Of a DNA stretch of 64,000 nt, positions 34,037 to 61,722 are shown in pieces. The position numbers were made by a program, and so were the translations under genes. The first letter of the stretch is position 1. Every line of letters begins with the position of its first letter. Under the pieces are notes generated by a model. It had not been told where the DNA came from and ran no database searches. It was given only the letters and a program-made list of their open reading frames with translations. Where the stretch lies: assembly GCA_934254585.1 (NCBI GenBank), contig CAKQLF010000001.1:28093-92092 (forward strand). The letters are read 5' to 3'. The stretch is from an uncultured Alphaproteobacteria bacterium (GTDB lineage Bacteria > Pseudomonadota > Alphaproteobacteria > RF32 > CAG-239).

Positions 34037-34087
34037 ATGAAAAATAAGCTTAGCAAAGGTCTCTCTCTCTCTCTCTGCAAATCCTAA
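34037..34087 (+). CDS. 16-codon upstream ORF containing a (CT)8 tract
   Basis: SD gagga 7 nt upstream. Encodes MKNKLSKGLSLSLCKS. Speculative as a translated uORF. Confidence 0.2.
   Translation: MKNKLSKGLSLSLCKS
34060..34076. repeat. (TC)8 dinucleotide microsatellite
   Basis: tctctctctctctctct read directly. Only such tract in the window. Confidence 0.9.
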
Positions 34088-34475
34088 ATGTCTGATTAAA
34101 GGCATATTTTCTGCCGCTACAGACGTTTTTGCAAGTTTTTTCAGAAAAAATGACATATTAAAAAATAACAAGCACAGCACGAAACTGGCAGGCGGCACAA
34201 AGCAAGCAATTCTAGCACCAGTCATTATAGGCCCTGTGCCTAGAATCTTGTTGCAACAAGGTACTAACCTAGTCAATAAATTTGCCTTATTATTACATAA
34301 GTGTCGGTTCGCACAAGATTCTCGGGACAAGCCCGAGAATGACGGTAGCTGGAGGTGTTGGCTTAGTATTTGTTACAAGTTATTTAATTACCCCTCACCA
34401 GCAGACAAGTCTGCGACCGATAAGCCATCAAAGGGTTTGGATGTCGTGCGGCAATACGCCGTGCTTTTTGAACGA

Positions 34476-34495
34476 CGTGTACAGAGTAGTACACG
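34476..34495. repeat. palindromic element cgtgtac-N6-gtacacg (copy A)
   Basis: Perfect 7-bp arms. Lies within the conserved direct repeat cgacgtgtaca...agtacacgag. Confidence 0.8.
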
Positions 34496-34588
34496 AGTGA
34501 GAAAAGCGCAAGCAGTGAACGGACAGACAAAACATATTAGAAATCTTCTTCCGCAATGTGCGTCAGATGCGACGGGATTTTTAAGCGA

Positions 34589-34609
34589 CGTGTACAAAAA
34601 AAGTACACG
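34589..34609. repeat. palindromic element cgtgtac-N7-gtacacg (copy B)
   Basis: Same arms as copy A, about 113 bp downstream and 26 nt before the pilin-like GTG. Confidence 0.8.
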
Positions 34610-34634
34610 AGCGCGAAAATTCCTAGCAGATGGC

Positions 34635-35282
34635 GTGCAGTACGGTAGAAGTATGATTGAGATGTTGGGCGTTTTGGCCATCATCGCTGTTTTGAGCGTT
34701 GGCGGTATTGCCGGATATTCTAAGGCAATGGAAAAATTCAAACTTAATAAGGCTATGGATGAATACAGCTATCTTATTTATGGGTTGCTGGAACACTTAG
34801 ATGAAATTAAATATTCCACTAAATCCAGAGACGGAAATGATACTCCTGTTGTGGAATTAGCTAATAATTTGAATTTGGTTCCTCCGACATGGACAATGAT
34901 AGCAAACAATCTTAATGTTAGTCATAAAAATTTATTTGAAGACCCATATAACAATCTTTTATCTATTTACTCAAAAAACGGAAATTTGCGTTTTGATTTT
35001 ATTTTAGGCGGTTCGCAATTTAAGGACGAAGGTTCTTGGATAACTGAAAATTTTTCAACCAAATTCTGTATGGAATTGGTAAACAATGTTGTCAAACCAT
35101 TGCATTCTTCTTTGGAATTTTTATTTTTTTACAGGTCAAAAGGAAACTCATCCACTTTTTATGGTGATAAGAATTGTTCTTCCGGACGCAAATGTTTGAG
35201 TGATATCAGTATAAAAGAAGTGTATGATAATTGTAAACGTTGCTCAAAAAAAGAAGTTTGTTCAGTAACTATAGACTTTTAA
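34635..35282 (+). CDS. type IV pilin-like protein, paralog 1 (class-III-signal-like N-terminus)
   Basis: Track ORF 34236..35282. The start is reassigned to in-frame GTG 34635 because DNA conservation with paralog 2 begins exactly there (gtgcagtNcggNagaagtatgat). N-terminus ..G-RSMIEMLGVLAIIAVLSVGGIAGYSKAMEK has Glu at +5 of the hydrophobic segment. The C-terminal Cys motif CSSGRKCL...CKRC...EVCSV is shared with paralog 3. Confidence 0.55.
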   Translation: MQYGRSMIEMLGVLAIIAVLSVGGIAGYSKAMEKFKLNKAMDEYSYLIYGLLEHLDEIKYSTKSRDGNDTPVVELANNLNLVPPTWTMIANNLNVSHKNLFEDPYNNLLSIYSKNGNLRFDFILGGSQFKDEGSWITENFSTKFCMELVNNVVKPLHSSLEFLFFYRSKGNSSTFYGDKNCSSGRKCLSDISIKEVYDNCKRCSKKEVCSVTIDF

Positions 35283-48437: not shown

Positions 48438-48585
48438 GTGAACAACTAACAACTAATACTTTGATTTTTTTCCGCTGTATAAAGGCGGATTTTTTTTGTT
48501 TTTAACGATTAACTTAAAATCTGTTTTAAAATAGTAAAAAATAAAACATATTTAGATAAAACAATTAATTAAAACGCGGTTTAAA

Positions 48586-48627
48586 GTCCGTTTTAAACCA
48601 CCGTTTAAAACGGACTCTCAAAAATGG
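48586..48627. repeat. left inverted repeat (contains perfect 12-bp palindrome gtccgttttaaa/tttaaaacggac)
   Basis: Read directly. Its reverse complement matches 48726-48766 at about 75% identity (shared core ttaaaccaccgtt...ggactct). Confidence 0.75.
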
Positions 48628-48679
48628 AAAATCAAAAAAATCACCAAACCCGAAAAAATGTTGAAAATATAAAAAGTTA

Positions 48680-48708
48680 TTGCAATATTGGCACCTTTTT
48701 CCTATACT
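48680..48708 (+). promoter_or_regulatory. sigma70-like promoter TTGCAA-17-TATACT inside the IR-flanked segment, facing pilin-like paralog 2
   Basis: The hexamers and 17-bp spacer were read directly. Confidence 0.4.
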
Positions 48709-48725
48709 CAAAAAAACAGCAAAAA

Positions 48726-48766
48726 AGAGTCCAAAAATAACGGTGGTTTAAATTGGACTTTAAAAG
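48726..48766. repeat. right inverted repeat (inverse copy of 48586-48627)
   Basis: agagtccaaaaataacggtggtttaaattggactttaaaag. Confidence 0.7.
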
Positions 48767-48997
48767 AAGAAAAAATAAAGGAGAATCAAAGTGTTAGAAA
48801 ATGGCAAAATGGGGCTTTTAAGACGGGTTTTTGAGGTGATTTTTGGGCACAATGTCATTAATCGGCATTTTTTCAAGGTTATTAGTGAGATTTTGGGTAC
48901 CATTCGCGGGCTCCGACCTGCGAATCTGGATTGCCGGATTACGTCTGGCAATGACAGTAAGGTGGAGTGCGTCACGTTCGGCAATGACTATAGAGTT

Positions 48998-49636
48998 GTG
49001 CAGTCCGGAAGAAGTATGATAGAAATGCTCGGCGTTTTGGCTATAATTGCGGTTCTTTCCGTTGGCGGAATTGCCGGATATTCCAAGGCCTTAATGAAAT
49101 GGAAATCAAATGTTCAAAAAAATATGTTGGCAGAATTGTTAACTAATATGATAAAAATTAGACCTAATCTCGATAAAAAATCTACATCATTTGATAACAT
49201 AACCTATGTTTTTGAGGCTATGGGAGCATTACCGGAAGGAATAACTTATAAAAATAATTATATGTATGATAAAGAAGATAATTTGATTTGGATTGATTAT
49301 GGTTTATCGTCGTGGACTAATGAAGATGGTTCCATTGGCACGATGTTTGCTTATGTTTTACGTTTTAATTATAAAATAGGTACTGGTAATCTAACGGTTC
49401 CGGCTAAGGATTTTTGCTTGAATTTGCTTGAGGCTGCTAAAACTATTGCGGAAGAGGTTGTTTGTGTAAAAACAAATTATAGTGATTCTTCCAGTTGGAA
49501 TGGTTCAGGTCAAAATGTAATGTATACAAAAAGGTCTTTAGAAACGGCAACAATGGCAGATATGCAACAGAAATGCAATATGGTAATTAAAGAAGAGGGC
49601 GGAGTTCGTTTTTCATTAATGCTAAATCCTTATTAA
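48998..49636 (+). CDS. type IV pilin-like protein, paralog 2
   Basis: Track ORF 48791..49636. Start reassigned to in-frame GTG 48998 (MQSG-RSMIEMLGVLAIIAVLSVGGIAGYSKALMK). The C-terminal domain is diverged (3 Cys) and not alignable by eye with paralogs 1 and 3. Confidence 0.5.
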   Translation: MQSGRSMIEMLGVLAIIAVLSVGGIAGYSKALMKWKSNVQKNMLAELLTNMIKIRPNLDKKSTSFDNITYVFEAMGALPEGITYKNNYMYDKEDNLIWIDYGLSSWTNEDGSIGTMFAYVLRFNYKIGTGNLTVPAKDFCLNLLEAAKTIAEEVVCVKTNYSDSSSWNGSGQNVMYTKRSLETATMADMQQKCNMVIKEEGGVRFSLMLNPY

Positions 49637-57731: not shown

Positions 57732-57848
57732 AATATCAGTCTAACACTTTTTATGCTAAAAATAAACAAACTTTTTAAATTTTTAATTTTAACAACTTTT
57801 TAACCGGAATTTTTGCATAATATTCGTCAGATATTCAGGAGGACTAAG

Positions 57849-58124
57849 ATGAAAAAATTATTTATGTTGGGTATAGTGGCAATGGTTGCGGCTTGTTCTT
57901 CCTCGCCAAAAGAAACTTATCCGTATGGTTTAAGCGAATCTGAATGGAATCAGCTTTCGATTAAAGATAAAACGAGAATTCGTCGGGATTTTTACTTTTA
58001 TGAAAAAGGACAGGTAAATTTTGTAAATCCGGATATGGATATTGAGGGTAAAAAAGAGCAGCCAAACATCTATCAAAAGAAAATTCAGGGAAAAGTTGAA
58101 ACAAAAAGCTTAGAAAACGAATAG
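57849..58124 (+). CDS. small lipoprotein
   Basis: Track ORF starts at 57813. The better start is ATG 57849 with SD aggagg 7 nt upstream. Lipobox MVAACSS. Confidence 0.6.
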   Translation: MKKLFMLGIVAMVAACSSSPKETYPYGLSESEWNQLSIKDKTRIRRDFYFYEKGQVNFVNPDMDIEGKKEQPNIYQKKIQGKVETKSLENE

Positions 58125-58218
58125 AATGATTTAGCATAACTTTGCTGTTTATAAGAACTCCGGTTAATATTTTGGTTATTAACCGCGAGTTTTTTTGTAA
58201 GCTTACAATAAAATTATC

Positions 58219-58247
58219 TTGCTAATTTTCAGCAAATTAGTTAGAAT
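58219..58247 (+). promoter_or_regulatory. sigma70-like promoter TTGCTA-17-TAGAAT with overlapping 7-bp inverted repeat (ctaattt/aaattag)
   Basis: Read directly. Drives the structured region upstream of pilin-like paralog 3. Confidence 0.45.
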
Positions 58248-58254
58248 GTTTCTT

Positions 58255-58467
58255 GAGTTGGTTGTAACCGGCTTAGGGCGTCAGAAACCCTTTATTCAGA
58301 TATACAGTCGTTAAGCATAAGCGACTTTAAATATGTATGCCGACTTCTGCTCTTTTGGACGGATGTCGGTTTTATAAGGCTATAAGCACGAAAATGCCGA
58401 GCCGTTTTTTGTATATCTGATACGGTTTCTGAACATCCGCCCGCCAACAGGTGGGTTTTGTTTTTTT
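58255..58467 (+). ncRNA. candidate structured RNA (sRNA or cis-regulatory leader/attenuator) ending in an intrinsic terminator
   Basis: A long imperfect inverted repeat, tcagaaaccctttattcagatatac (58281-305) paired with gtatatctgatacggtttctga (58411-432), encloses about 105 nt with an internal stem ccgac...gtcgg. The terminator cccgcc-aaca-ggtggg plus U-run lies at 58440-67. Confidence 0.35.
58440..58467 (+). terminator. rho-independent terminator/attenuator 24 nt upstream of pilin-like paralog 3
   Basis: Stem cccgcc/ggtggg (one G-U pair) followed by ttttgttttttt. Confidence 0.7.
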
Positions 58468-58490
58468 ATAATTATACAGGTGTTTAGAAT

Positions 58491-59111
58491 ATGGGATATT
58501 TTTACAATCAAACAGGTCGTTCAATGATAGAAATGTTAGGCGTTTTGGCTATTATCGCCGTTTTATCCGTGGGAGGTATTGCCGGATATTCTAAGGCAAT
58601 GGAAATGTATAAAGAAGATAAAGTTATTGAAGAATATAGCTATATGCTGACAGGTTTTATTGAACATTTGGATAATTTAAAGCGAAATAAATATGAAAGA
58701 CAAACAGGTATGGTTGATTTTGCTCTATCTGCCAATATTGTACCATCTGTATGGACCAGACTAAGCAGTGATTATATAAATGATAGCTTTGGAAATAAAT
58801 TAAGAATATATATGGGAACAAGTGGTATTTTGGTTATTGATTTTTGGATGGGTGGAAAAACTAAAAAATTTGATACAAAATTTTGCCGTAAATTTTTAAA
58901 TAAAGTTGCTTTTCCCTTACATCAGACATTAAAGCAAATTGATGTGCATCGTAATGAAAATGGAAACTTAAATGGTCTAATATGGAAAGGAGATAATTTT
59001 TGCAGTGCGGGGCAAAAATGTCTTAGAGATATTACGTTGACGGAAATAGATGCGGCTTGCAAAACTTGTGTGGAAGATAGAGAAGTTTGTGCAGTTATTT
59101 TCTGGTTATAG
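58491..59111 (+). CDS. type IV pilin-like protein, paralog 3
   Basis: Sequence MGYFYNQTG-RSMIEMLGVLAIIAVLSVGGIAGYSKAMEMYK has a 9-aa leader ending in Gly, then the conserved block. The C-terminal CSAGQKCL...CKTC...EVCAV is homologous to paralog 1. Confidence 0.6.
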   Translation: MGYFYNQTGRSMIEMLGVLAIIAVLSVGGIAGYSKAMEMYKEDKVIEEYSYMLTGFIEHLDNLKRNKYERQTGMVDFALSANIVPSVWTRLSSDYINDSFGNKLRIYMGTSGILVIDFWMGGKTKKFDTKFCRKFLNKVAFPLHQTLKQIDVHRNENGNLNGLIWKGDNFCSAGQKCLRDITLTEIDAACKTCVEDREVCAVIFWL

Positions 59112-59304: not shown

Positions 59305-61722
59305 TTATTCTGCGTCACCTTTTTTAAGTGCGTAAAATTGATTGTCTTGCGCCACTTTTTCACCAGAGTGGACAACAATTTGCGGAAACGGAATTTCTAT
59401 TCCTTCTTCAATAAAACGCTTATTGATGGAAAAACGCAAGTCGCTTGGCACAATCCAGCCCTTCCAAATATCATTGGTATAGCAACGTAGTTCAAAGTTC
59501 AAACTGCTGTCGGCAAAGTCTTTGAACAGCACATAAGGTGCCGGATTTTTCATAACATATTTATGAGCAAGCGCACATTCAAGCAAAATTTTACGCACTT
59601 TTTCCACATCAGAACCATAAGCAACCCCGACGGAAATGCTTTGGCGAGAAATATTATCGCCGTGTGTGAGGTTGACAATAGAGCTGGATAACAATGTGGC
59701 GTTTGGCACAATCACACTGGTGCGGTTAAAGCTTTCCATTTCGGTCGAACGAATGTTAATTTGTTTAATTTTGCCTTCTGTGCCGTTCATTATTACCCAA
59801 TCGCCCACCTTAAATGGACGCTCAAATAAAATGATGATACCGGATACAAGGTTTTTAATCACATCTTGCAGACCGAAACCGATACCAACTGAAAGAGCAC
59901 CGGCGATAAAGGCGAGGTTGGTTAAATCAACACCGACAGCAATAATGGCCAATAAACACGATATTATGAAACCGACAAAGCTTATACCGGAAATCAGGGA
60001 GTGTTTAATGCCATCATCAATATCCATATTGTTAAAAACATTGGAGGCCAGATGTTTTTTTATCAGTTTAACCACAGTCAGGGAAATGAAAAATACCATA
60101 ATGCCAAAAGCAATGGCAATTAAAGAAATTTGCACTCCGCCGATTTTGAAACCGAATAAAAGCTTTTTACCCATTTGCAACATAAAGTCACCTGGGAGAC
60201 CCCAGAGATTCAGTAAAATAAAAATGAGTGCCAAAACTAAAACCGGATTAATCAGCGAAGTAAGCCAAAATTCTATCTTACTGACGTTGCGTTTGCTCAC
60301 TTTTATGGATTTCATCCACGGGCTGGCCAAAACTATGCGTTTTAAAATATCAATAAAAGCACGGCGAAACAGCTCGAAAACGCCAATGATAATCATAGAT
60401 AAAATAAGGTTTCGTAAAATAAAAGACGACAGCTCCGGATAGCCTACAAGCGATAAACCGAAAATTGTGGCTAAAAGCAAATTACTGGCAACCATAATTT
60501 TAAATCCGCTGTCAAGAGTGTCTGTTTCTTCTTCAGTTTCTTCAATGGTTTCAGATGTAATACCATTCATTTCCCGATAAGTGTCAACGGCTATTTTGAT
60601 AATCCAAATCAAGAAAAAGGCCTTAACCGCACACGATATCATTGTCAGAAAGTGAATTGTATCAATCGGATATTTAGCTTTTTGCGCCACAATAACCTGA
60701 ATAAGAGCAATGGCGTTAAAGATAATAAACATAAATATTACACGGGTAAAACGCAAAGCTTTTTCGTTGGGAATATTTATCAGTCGCCATTGTTCATAAT
60801 TCGGCGCAAAAGTCACTCGGGAAATGGTGGCTTCAATAATGGCTAAAAATGAGGAAAAACCGGTAATCATTAAAACGTGACCGAGCAGACTGTCTCCAAA
60901 AATTTTGGTGCTGACCATCCAAATCATACCCGCGCCGACAAACGCATCCGGAATTAATCCGCGGGCAATGGCAACGGCAATGGCTGCCACCACCTTACGG
61001 CTGAAATGCGGCAACTCCACATCTTCTTTATATCCCCAGTGGGTTAAAATATATTTACGCAAAATAATGGCCACGGCCAAAGCCGCAATTAAAATCAAAG
61101 CCATAGAAACTATGCTTAAAATGGTGTAACTACGGTCACTTTTAGGGATACTTTGATACCAATCAATCGGGGATTTGGTTATGTCCCAAAAGAAAATAGC
61201 ATAGAGTTTTAAGCTGTTGAAAAAAACCATTGGGTTAATCAAGGCCGATTGTTTGGTGATTAAATCACCATAAACTTTTTTGCTTCGGGCGTTTAAAACC
61301 TGCGTGGTTAAATCTTCTATTTTAACAATAAGCAAATCCGCTTCTTTTAAAACACGGTCTTCAGCGGTTAATTCTTTGGTCAGGGTGTTACGTTGTTTGG
61401 TAATAACCTTGTCCTCAGCGGCTCCGTCTTTAGGTTCTCCAAGCGCGTCTAATTGTTTTTGGATATATTTTATATCCTTATCCAAATCTTTGCGGGTAGC
61501 ACTTATTTGTGCTTCTTGATTACTCAGATAATTGACATATTCATTTATGTTGTCTTCGGTCAGATTCTCGCTTTTTAGGGCGTTGTCTATTTGTTCGAGT
61601 TTTTTATTAATCTTATTAAAATCAATGCTGTTTTGCGTATCTGAGCTATCGGCAAAAGCCGGTAACAAAAACAAGAAAGCTGCAAAAATGGCAATAGAGG
61701 CTGTTTTGAAAAATTTAAGCAT
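59305..61722 (-). CDS. mechanosensitive channel, MscK/KefA-like (MscS family)
   Basis: 805 aa. Signal peptide, periplasmic coiled-coil, about 11 TM helices. MscS core ...FKVGDWVIMNGTEGKIKQINIRST. Confidence 0.85.
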   Translation of the reverse strand: MLKFFKTASIAIFAAFLFLLPAFADSSDTQNSIDFNKINKKLEQIDNALKSENLTEDNINEYVNYLSNQEAQISATRKDLDKDIKYIQKQLDALGEPKDGAAEDKVITKQRNTLTKELTAEDRVLKEADLLIVKIEDLTTQVLNARSKKVYGDLITKQSALINPMVFFNSLKLYAIFFWDITKSPIDWYQSIPKSDRSYTILSIVSMALILIAALAVAIILRKYILTHWGYKEDVELPHFSRKVVAAIAVAIARGLIPDAFVGAGMIWMVSTKIFGDSLLGHVLMITGFSSFLAIIEATISRVTFAPNYEQWRLINIPNEKALRFTRVIFMFIIFNAIALIQVIVAQKAKYPIDTIHFLTMISCAVKAFFLIWIIKIAVDTYREMNGITSETIEETEEETDTLDSGFKIMVASNLLLATIFGLSLVGYPELSSFILRNLILSMIIIGVFELFRRAFIDILKRIVLASPWMKSIKVSKRNVSKIEFWLTSLINPVLVLALIFILLNLWGLPGDFMLQMGKKLLFGFKIGGVQISLIAIAFGIMVFFISLTVVKLIKKHLASNVFNNMDIDDGIKHSLISGISFVGFIISCLLAIIAVGVDLTNLAFIAGALSVGIGFGLQDVIKNLVSGIIILFERPFKVGDWVIMNGTEGKIKQINIRSTEMESFNRTSVIVPNATLLSSSIVNLTHGDNISRQSISVGVAYGSDVEKVRKILLECALAHKYVMKNPAPYVLFKDFADSSLNFELRCYTNDIWKGWIVPSDLRFSINKRFIEEGIEIPFPQIVVHSGEKVAQDNQFYALKKGDAE

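Follow-up and report, generated by a model that had tools for sequence, protein, structure and literature searches.

A conserved family of putative leader RNAs upstream of surface-protein genes in uncultured gut Alphaproteobacteria

Directly upstream of a type IV pilin-like gene, the 64,000-nucleotide (nt) stretch of contig CAKQLF010000001.1 from an uncultured Alphaproteobacteria bacterium (the window) contains a region, 58219-58490, in which a sigma-70-like promoter, a strongly folding RNA of about 205 nt, an intrinsic terminator and the pilin-like open reading frame (ORF) follow one another. This raises the question of what the RNA is and whether it acts on the gene behind it. An earlier note on this DNA had considered a riboswitch- or attenuator-like leader, an independent small RNA (sRNA) or a DNA inversion substrate. 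Comparison of the sequences indicates that the RNA belongs to a leader-RNA family that is real, conserved and previously uncatalogued, and that precedes surface-protein genes in uncultured gut Alphaproteobacteria. Furthermore, we consider it rather probable that promoter, leader RNA, terminator and ribosome-binding site (RBS) together form a cassette that would work as a cis-acting attenuator, gating both the transcription and the translation of surface genes.

The element matches no catalogued RNA family. A search of the whole window with Rfam 15 (4227 models) at gathering scores returned only three tRNAs, and at E <= 10 nothing in 58100-58560 scored above 26.4 bits (sRNA-Xcc1, gathering score 53). 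ARAGORN found no tmRNA in the window. Both results agree with the observation in the earlier note that no likeness to 6S, SRP, RNase P or tmRNA could be seen by eye; no family reaches its gathering score, so there is no match to a housekeeping RNA. Literature searches on riboswitches of the RF32 lineage, on structured gut RNAs at autotransporter or pilin genes and on the conserved 15-mers of the element found nothing relevant. The RNA 58250-58470 has a predicted folding energy of -80.4 kcal/mol as compared to -52.1 +/- 4.1 kcal/mol for 200 dinucleotide shuffles (z = -6.86), none of which folds as well.

Homologues were collected in two ways, and the loci carrying them are labelled L003, L013, L090 and so on. 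The MscK-like neighbour gene (59305-61722, minus strand) used as bait led to 15 loci of 65-96% identity, most of them in metagenome-assembled genomes titled uncultured Alphaproteobacteria and originating from human gut. The RNA is present in five of these 15 loci, with 73-97% nucleotide identity and in at least four different genomic positions. A pattern built from two invariant blocks, GCCGAGCCGT-N4-34-ACGGTTTCTGAAC, was then used for a scan of metagenomes. It retrieved at least 120 stretches, mostly from human-gut assemblies; those listed hold 126 instances with 82 distinct full-length sequences. In viral contigs the 3' pattern gave no match, and the three matches of the 5' 16-mer, none of which is recognised by the covariance model, are due to chance. 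This covariance model, R1, was made from 46 aligned representatives with a structure written by hand (helices P1-P5 and the terminator). In the window it has a single match at 58274-58459 on the plus strand with 141.5 bits and E = 4e-34, E-values of R1 being rough. Over the loci searched it detects 92 copies at E < 1e-9, of which 75 are distinct. Nearly all full forward copies score 108-190 bits, and reverse-strand matches do not exceed 34 bits. A second copy in the window was found neither by blastn nor by nhmmer nor by the covariance model, and the two other pilin-like paralogues of the window (34041-35282 and 48779-49636) are without the leader.

Elsewhere the element occurs in several copies. 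Contig UMDD01008274.1 has two, each in front of one of the consecutive autotransporter genes; L020 and L090 each have a second copy kilobases away, and five loci (L018, L029, L036, L084 and L106) contain a tandem pair, with about 270 nt from one copy to the next and a promoter-like site for either of them. Several samples contain two or three contigs of equal coverage that bear copies. The loci found with the MscK bait contain one copy per roughly 56 kb, a density, not a count, that suggests a copy number in the tens per genome.

A comparison of homologues for compensatory base changes, as the earlier note had proposed, supports the fold. In the covariance alignment of the 75 distinct copies 95.6% of the cells pair, as compared to 32-42% when the partners are slid by one to three columns. 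Compensatory changes are found in 28 of the 50 pairs, and none of 500 shuffles reaches the observed values. Since this alignment was fitted to R1 the counts lean towards the structure; the same pairs had already held in a plain MAFFT alignment. Covariation thus supports a predicted fold consisting of a 5' hairpin (P0), a four-way junction of the helices P1-P5, a pseudoknot between a loop and the junction, and the terminator. The 5' hairpin and the pseudoknot go beyond what the earlier note had seen, as do the association of the family with surface-protein genes in general and the inclusion of the RBS in the conserved switch.

The 5'-terminal hairpin P0 (UGAGUUGGU/GCCGGCUUA, 58254-58275) varies in sequence between copies and is nevertheless kept. 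At this position a hairpin of at least 6 bp (mean -7.7 kcal/mol) is found in every one of the 68 distinct copies, as compared to 37% of random 28-mers taken from these loci, and the stems have 59 different sequences. P0 is followed by an invariant GGGCG box (58276-58280), complementary to CGCCC at 58438-58442; this helix is referred to as P1a, and its 5' strand is a candidate antiterminator strand. The long inverted repeat that the earlier note had placed at 58281-58305 and 58411-58432 corresponds to the helices P1 (58281-58289 with 58424-58432) and P2 (58297-58306 with 58410-58419). P1, whose 5' strand is UCAGAAACC, is paired in 97.9% and covaries in copies found by the model and not by the pattern, where CAGAAA/UUUCUG is changed to CGAAAA/UUUUCG and, in a divergent copy, to GGUAGC/GCUUACC. 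All nine pairs of P2 show compensatory changes, and all six pairs of the P3 hairpin (58307-58325) covary. The P3 loop, GCAU at 58315-58318, forms the predicted pseudoknot with AUGC at the base of P4 (58337-58340), paired in 96.6%. Here U-A is replaced by C-G in 12 distinct copies and G-C by A-U in two, and the variants GCAC/GUGC, GCAA/UUGC, ACAU/AUGU and GUGUA/UACGC occur. The P4 hairpin (58339-58370) covaries at its tip, and its 3' strand GGACGGAUG (58357-58365) resembles a Shine-Dalgarno sequence. The P5 hairpin (58378-58403) has conserved AAUAAGG and AAUAnGCCGAGCC elements together with GCCGAGCCGU, which the search pattern fixes in most loci. Many unpaired nucleotides of junctions and loops are invariant. 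G-U pairs occur frequently; at pair 91/123, for instance, 64 of 75 copies have U-G. Together with the low reverse-strand scores this argues for selection on the plus-strand RNA and not on a DNA repeat.

The promoter and the terminator are conserved along with the fold. The promoter given in the earlier note, TTGCTA-17-TAGAAT at 58219-58247 on the plus strand, is present with 9/12 matches and a predicted transcription start near 58254. By motif alone, promoter-like sites are at chance level (7 found, 6.7 expected). In 64 of 79 distinct homologous copies, however, a TAnnnT -10 element is placed 5-9 nt 5' of the first paired base of P0, with a -35 element (at least 4/6 positions, often TTTACA or TTTACT) at a spacing of 16-18 nt. 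It is this conserved placement, and not the motif score alone, that supports the promoter, and from the fixed distance of -10 and -35 elements to P0 transcription should start at P0. Upstream, a 9-bp hairpin at 58161-58185 with T-runs on both sides, located 3' of a small lipoprotein-like ORF (57813-58124), resembles a bidirectional terminator and may insulate the leader promoter from upstream transcription. The terminator, CCCGCC-AACA-GGUGGG followed by UUUUGUUUUUUU (58440-58467, plus strand), consists of a stem of 58440-58445 with 58450-58455 and a U-tract to 58467; a terminator-like site was also called at 58435-58456 with a T-run reaching 58467. It has the G+C-rich hairpin directly followed by a U-tract that characterizes intrinsic terminators, and five of its six stem pairs show compensatory changes involving G-C, A-U and G-U pairs. 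As described in the earlier note, it ends shortly before the ATG of the pilin-like gene at 58491.

The gene in question (58491-59111, plus strand) encodes a protein of 206 amino acids (aa) with the N-terminus ...GRSMIEMLGVLAIIAVLSVGG and a weak NCBIfam match to a prepilin-peptidase-dependent protein. Among the 120 listed loci, 99 have an ORF that starts at most 70 nt past the pattern match, i.e. about 20-25 nt after the U-tract, which leaves no room for another promoter in front of this same-strand ORF. The downstream ORFs of the listed loci belong to at least nine unrelated families: autotransporters (PF03797, 25 loci), pilin-like proteins (18 loci), lipoprotein families of 19, 11, 9, 3 and 2 loci, one of them with a PEGA domain, Cys-rich secreted proteins (3 loci), a GT29 sialyltransferase-like enzyme (1 locus) and an APH/choline-kinase-like enzyme (2 loci). 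What autotransporters, pilin-like proteins, lipoproteins and enzymes of surface glycans have in common is the cell surface.

How might such a leader act on these genes? The most conserved part of the RNA is the strand GGUUUCUGAACAUCCGCCC (58424-58442, plus strand), which comprises the 3' strand of P1 (58424-58432) and a tail (58433-58442). It has four alternative partners, namely the 5' strand of the RNA (P1/P1a), the P4 3' strand, the 3' half of the terminator and the downstream RBS. P1a shares three nucleotides with the terminator stem. It is part of the predicted minimum free energy (MFE) fold of the nascent transcript, and in the full transcript its formation costs only 5 kcal/mol (-74.3 versus -79.4 kcal/mol); these energy calculations ignore pseudoknots. 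The P4 3' strand GGACGGAUG is complementary to the tail sequence CAUCCGCCC. This helix, H-a, competes together with two others, H-b and H-c, with the better-supported junction fold, and the three are pairable to 94.9% across the copies. The divergent copy at L090:9589-9756 (53 bits), which is located upstream of a pilin-like gene, has the same predicted junction architecture and keeps H-a, H-b and H-c through seven compensatory changes, three of them in the P4-3'/tail helix. Another candidate for an ON fold, pairing of the 5' strands of P1 and P4 (CAGAAA:UUUCUG), was rejected since by eye it is not kept in the CGAAAA variants or in the divergent copy.

The fourth partner is the ribosome-binding region of the pilin-like gene, GGUGUUUAGAA (58479-58489, plus strand), which ends just before the AUG. 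Its 11 nucleotides are complementary to UUCUGAACAUC (58427-58437) in 11 contiguous pairs. Across the copies the longest contiguous complement has a mean of 8.5 as compared to 6.3 in 871 background ORFs of the same loci, and a complement of at least 8 is found in 76% of the copies and in 16% of the background ORFs (Mann-Whitney p = 1.4e-20). Close to the RBS, 47% of the copies have GGAUG, versus 1.5% of the background ORFs. The tail, the Shine-Dalgarno sequence and P4 change together: most copies have CAUCC in the tail with GGAUG at both other positions, the L048 group has a CACUCC tail with GGAGU, and the divergent L090 copy has CUUCC with GGAAG in the Shine-Dalgarno sequence and in P4. In predicted MFE folds of read-through transcripts the tail pairs with the Shine-Dalgarno region in five of the 13 tried. 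Pairings that exclude each other, terminator against antiterminator and RBS against anti-RBS, are what an expression platform of a riboswitch generally requires, and they are found here in silico; so is the covarying structured domain in the 5' untranslated region ahead of an ORF that is the general structural feature of riboswitches.

Regulation by these pairings, the default state and the existence of an effector are three points that we infer from the anatomy of the cassette only. In the proposed attenuator the four-way junction P1-P5 would be locked by the pseudoknot between the P3 loop and the base of P4, and GGUUUCUGAACAUCCGCCC would act as the switch strand. In the OFF state the junction fold would form and the last bases of GGUUUCUGAACAUCCGCCC would close the terminator; in mRNAs that are read through, the tail and the end of P1 would mask the Shine-Dalgarno and start region. 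In the ON state GGUUUCUGAACAUCCGCCC would be captured either by the 5' strand (P1 and P1a, stacked on P0) or by the P4 3' strand, and either capture would remove the terminator and the RBS mask together. The balance would presumably be set by an effector, be it a small molecule, a protein or an RNA, with the junction, the pseudoknot or the P1/P1a bulge as its recognition site, and the whole set of surface-protein genes would respond together.

Several points weigh against this proposal. The junction-plus-terminator state is the thermodynamic minimum, so that switching ON would need a factor, for which no candidate was identified. P1a is pairable to 98.4% and almost invariant with only one compensatory cell, and covariation can thus not test it. 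The seven compensatory changes in favor of the P4-3'/tail fold all come from one divergent sequence, and as long as a pseudoknot is disallowed the junction fold is more stable than this one by about 27 kcal/mol. In the pilin-type copies the pairing between tail and Shine-Dalgarno sequence is weaker (UCCG:CGGA and UUUCUGA:UUAGAAA). The search pattern fixes GCCGAGCCGU and ACGGUUUCUGAAC in most loci, and the invariance of these blocks is partly a matter of ascertainment; the 5' block AGGGCGUCAGAAACCC, which lies outside the pattern, is still almost invariant. Many copies are close relatives and their numbers do not count independent events. There is an intact orphan copy without a downstream gene (L013 and L125). 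Finally, the positions at which transcription starts and ends are predicted ones, as is any read-through.

As to the attenuator- or riboswitch-like leader of the earlier note, the conserved layout, selection at the level of the RNA and the fixed position before ORFs support the leader, and the label riboswitch is unproven, with no ligand to be deduced. The corresponding alternative, a special form of the proposed attenuator, is a riboswitch for a small molecule or second messenger, in which the junction and the pseudoknot form the aptamer and the ligand fixes P1/P1a and turns the surface genes on, or the reverse. We regard it as a possibility of some interest, if a doubtful one. Riboswitch leaders resemble the element in being covarying cis-acting 5' leaders in which the 5' half of the terminator can pair elsewhere as well and a strand of the leader is complementary to the RBS. 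The many invariant unpaired nucleotides, the pseudoknot and the tandem copies known from some riboswitches fit as well, and so do the two platforms, terminator and RBS. Cyclic di-GMP (c-di-GMP) riboswitch regulons resemble the set of pilin and adhesin genes found here, and in Clostridioides difficile a c-di-GMP-II riboswitch is located upstream of the type IV pilin gene pilA1. However, no known riboswitch model of Rfam matches, and from the downstream genes, which encode structural surface proteins of many unrelated families, no metabolic hint at a ligand can be drawn. In sequence the expression platform is conserved as much as the presumed aptamer, which is unusual for riboswitches, and the promoter, too, belongs to the unit conserved as one cassette. 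On this view, which we suggest only tentatively, the leader would represent an RNA sensor of a novel class that responds to a second messenger or to a host-derived signal. Perhaps with tens of copies per genome, it would gate, in transcription and translation co-ordinately, the repertoire of pilins, autotransporter adhesins, lipoproteins and glycan-decorating enzymes at the surface of a widespread uncultured alphaproteobacterial lineage of the human gut.

It is unlikely that the terminated RNA of about 205 nt is itself the product, one of a multi-copy family of trans-acting sRNAs for which the downstream genes would be mere neighbours or reached by secondary read-through; a dual role as leader and sRNA also falls under this explanation. 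The independent sRNA considered in the earlier note keeps some of its basis, as most copies, the tandem ones included, have their own promoter-like site and a strong terminator, and as the orphan copy is intact. In addition, the only recurrent similarity in Rfam is to an sRNA, sRNA-Xcc1 (RF02221, 87-position model), with 26.4 bits in the window and 26.0-34.4 bits in nine of ten homologous loci, all below the gathering score. This is an 88-nt RNA, detected as such, that is encoded upstream of symE in Xanthomonas integron cassettes and occurs in five tandem copies in Xylella (PMC2996969; PMC12189769; bioRxiv 10.1101/2025.06.18.660453). Like the element described here it is multi-copy and lies upstream of a same-strand gene. 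The match covers only the 3' ~90 nt, where the three helices of sRNA-Xcc1, an outer stem and two hairpins, map onto H-a, H-b and H-c; the 3' module of the leader may be distantly homologous to it. On the other hand, sRNA-Xcc1 has nothing that corresponds to P0, to P1-P3, to the pseudoknot or to the separate hairpin of the terminator, and host phylum and neighbouring genes differ. Against an sRNA as the sole product speak the narrow spacing to the same-strand ORF and the co-variation of the neighbour gene's RBS with the tail of the RNA, which is expected only for action in cis.

An improbable explanation, in our opinion, is a leader operated by a protein, either a CsrA-like protein binding the GGAUGU/GGA motifs in P4 and the RBS or a dedicated antiterminator acting on the junction. 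GGAUGU is found in both places, and the enrichment at the RBS is strong. Moreover, leader-binding antiterminators are known to control surface operons regulon-wide, as in the case of RfaH with ops/JUMPStart, LoaP and the UpxY leaders of Bacteroides. These systems and EAR share with the cassette that one leader precedes many operons for pili, adhesins or surface glycans and that control is exerted at transcription termination. They use, however, a short DNA or RNA signal and a NusG-family protein acting on downstream terminators, whereas the cassette has a junction RNA of about 205 nt with its own terminator and RBS mask. No linked NusG paralogue or other candidate protein gene was identified beside the copies, nor is there a match to Rfam JUMPstart or another leader. 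Where the motif is altered the tail is altered accordingly (CUUCC with GGAAG), which points to pairing between RNA strands and not to a fixed protein site. A likeness of GGACGGAUGUCGG to ops/JUMPStart was rejected by eye, with only 6-7 of 12 positions matching. Two further candidates were considered: a leader peptide was rejected by eye, since insertions and deletions in the P4 loop put the copies into different frames, and so was the RNA of a retron or diversity-generating retroelement, as none of the examined ORFs in the neighbourhood was noticed to encode a reverse transcriptase.

The DNA inversion substrate of the earlier note, i.e. site-specific recombination at the long inverted repeat and phase variation of the pilin-like gene, is very improbable. 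A long inverted repeat upstream of a pilin-like gene and a genuine-looking invertible promoter at 48580-48764 in the same genome are in its favor, and control of a pilin-like gene is what switches of the fimS type have in common with the cassette. In contrast to fimS-type switches, the repeat does not flank the promoter: both arms lie 3' of it, and an inversion would not switch the promoter. The arms vary and yet pair through compensatory changes and through the G-U pairs in which their stems are rich, which would be mismatches in DNA; scores on the opposite strand are far lower, selection acts at the level of the RNA, and no recombinase gene adjoins the element in the window. With respect to the other locus, 39-nt inverted repeats (79% complementary) at 48580-48764 surround 107 nt that hold a promoter-like TTGCAA-17-TATACT, just upstream of the pilin-like ORF 48779-49636 and between a tRNA-Leu gene and a PPDK-sized ORF of 892 aa. 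The arrangement resembles a phase switch with an invertible promoter. In L014, by contrast, it is the structured leader that precedes the pilin-like gene beside this 892-aa ORF. A diverged housekeeping RNA (6S, a piece of tmRNA, SRP RNA or RNase P RNA), of which only the size and the long closing stem reminiscent of 6S RNA could be said in favor, can be dismissed practically with certainty, given the searches above and an element that is multi-copy, sometimes tandem and placed directly before ORFs.

Further observations concern individual copies. The orphan copy (L013:12596-12770 and L125:679-853, 181-182 bits, without a downstream ORF) converges on a tRNA-Thr and the MscK-like gene and lies 3' of a 395-aa ORF; in the window and in L006, unlike in these two loci, the pilin-like gene is located between the RNA and the tRNA. 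At L038:7587-9125 the leader is intact up to GAACAU, and the tail and the terminator are replaced by unrelated sequence. About 190 nt beyond this break a P4-type tyrosine integrase with Arm-DNA-binding, SAM-like and catalytic domains is encoded, and the 3' end of the RNA gene may have served as the integration site of an island, a role that tRNA and tmRNA genes are known to play. A copy of about 80 bits (L056:3868-4048 and L110:2656-2836) has no terminator or 5' block recognisable by pattern, and the next ORF is S9-like, corresponding to the C-terminal part of this ribosomal protein; the copy may be decayed. The records of L003, L005, L008 and L013 are titled Bacteroidaceae, [Ruminococcus] gnavus or Eubacteriales. 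Their MscK-like protein is 90-92% identical to the alphaproteobacterial one and their G+C content is low, and they look like mislabelled or contaminated bins.

Other observations concern the calling of ORFs around the leader. Antisense to it, mechanical ORFs of 43-51 aa are called at 58292-58447, 58372-58524 and 58380-58511 (all on the minus strand), and these three almost certainly reflect nothing but the structure and the higher G+C content of the RNA sequence. In tandem loci (for example L106:874-1043 and 1146-1314) both copies, each with a terminator, precede the same PEGA-domain lipoprotein gene; here the mechanical ORF call crosses the second copy, which results in a false N-terminal extension of 41 residues (MSANKALPNK...). 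Within the conserved Shine-Dalgarno region AAGGAUGUU of many loci with the leader, such as L049, L020, L115, L027 and L096, there is an AUG in frame with the real start 9-12 nt downstream, and naive ORF calls at such loci begin with MFIMKK, MFNRMK, MFKMKK, MFSMKK or MFNMN.

Overall, the architecture appears to be that of an unusually complete cassette, which would work like a riboswitch or attenuator leader outside any catalogued family. For annotation, the cassette explains spurious ORFs over the leader, such as the 51-aa ORF at 58292-58447 on the minus strand, as well as the false N-terminal extensions through tandem copies, and it marks the true start codons of surface-protein genes. With at least 75 distinct copies and clear alternative pairings the family should be a good target for the search for a ligand or protein and for structural work. 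If the proposed mechanism is true, one RNA module would control the cell-surface make-up of common uncultured bacteria of the human gut, and would do by means of RNA what other gut bacteria achieve by phase variation and antitermination, namely vary their surface.

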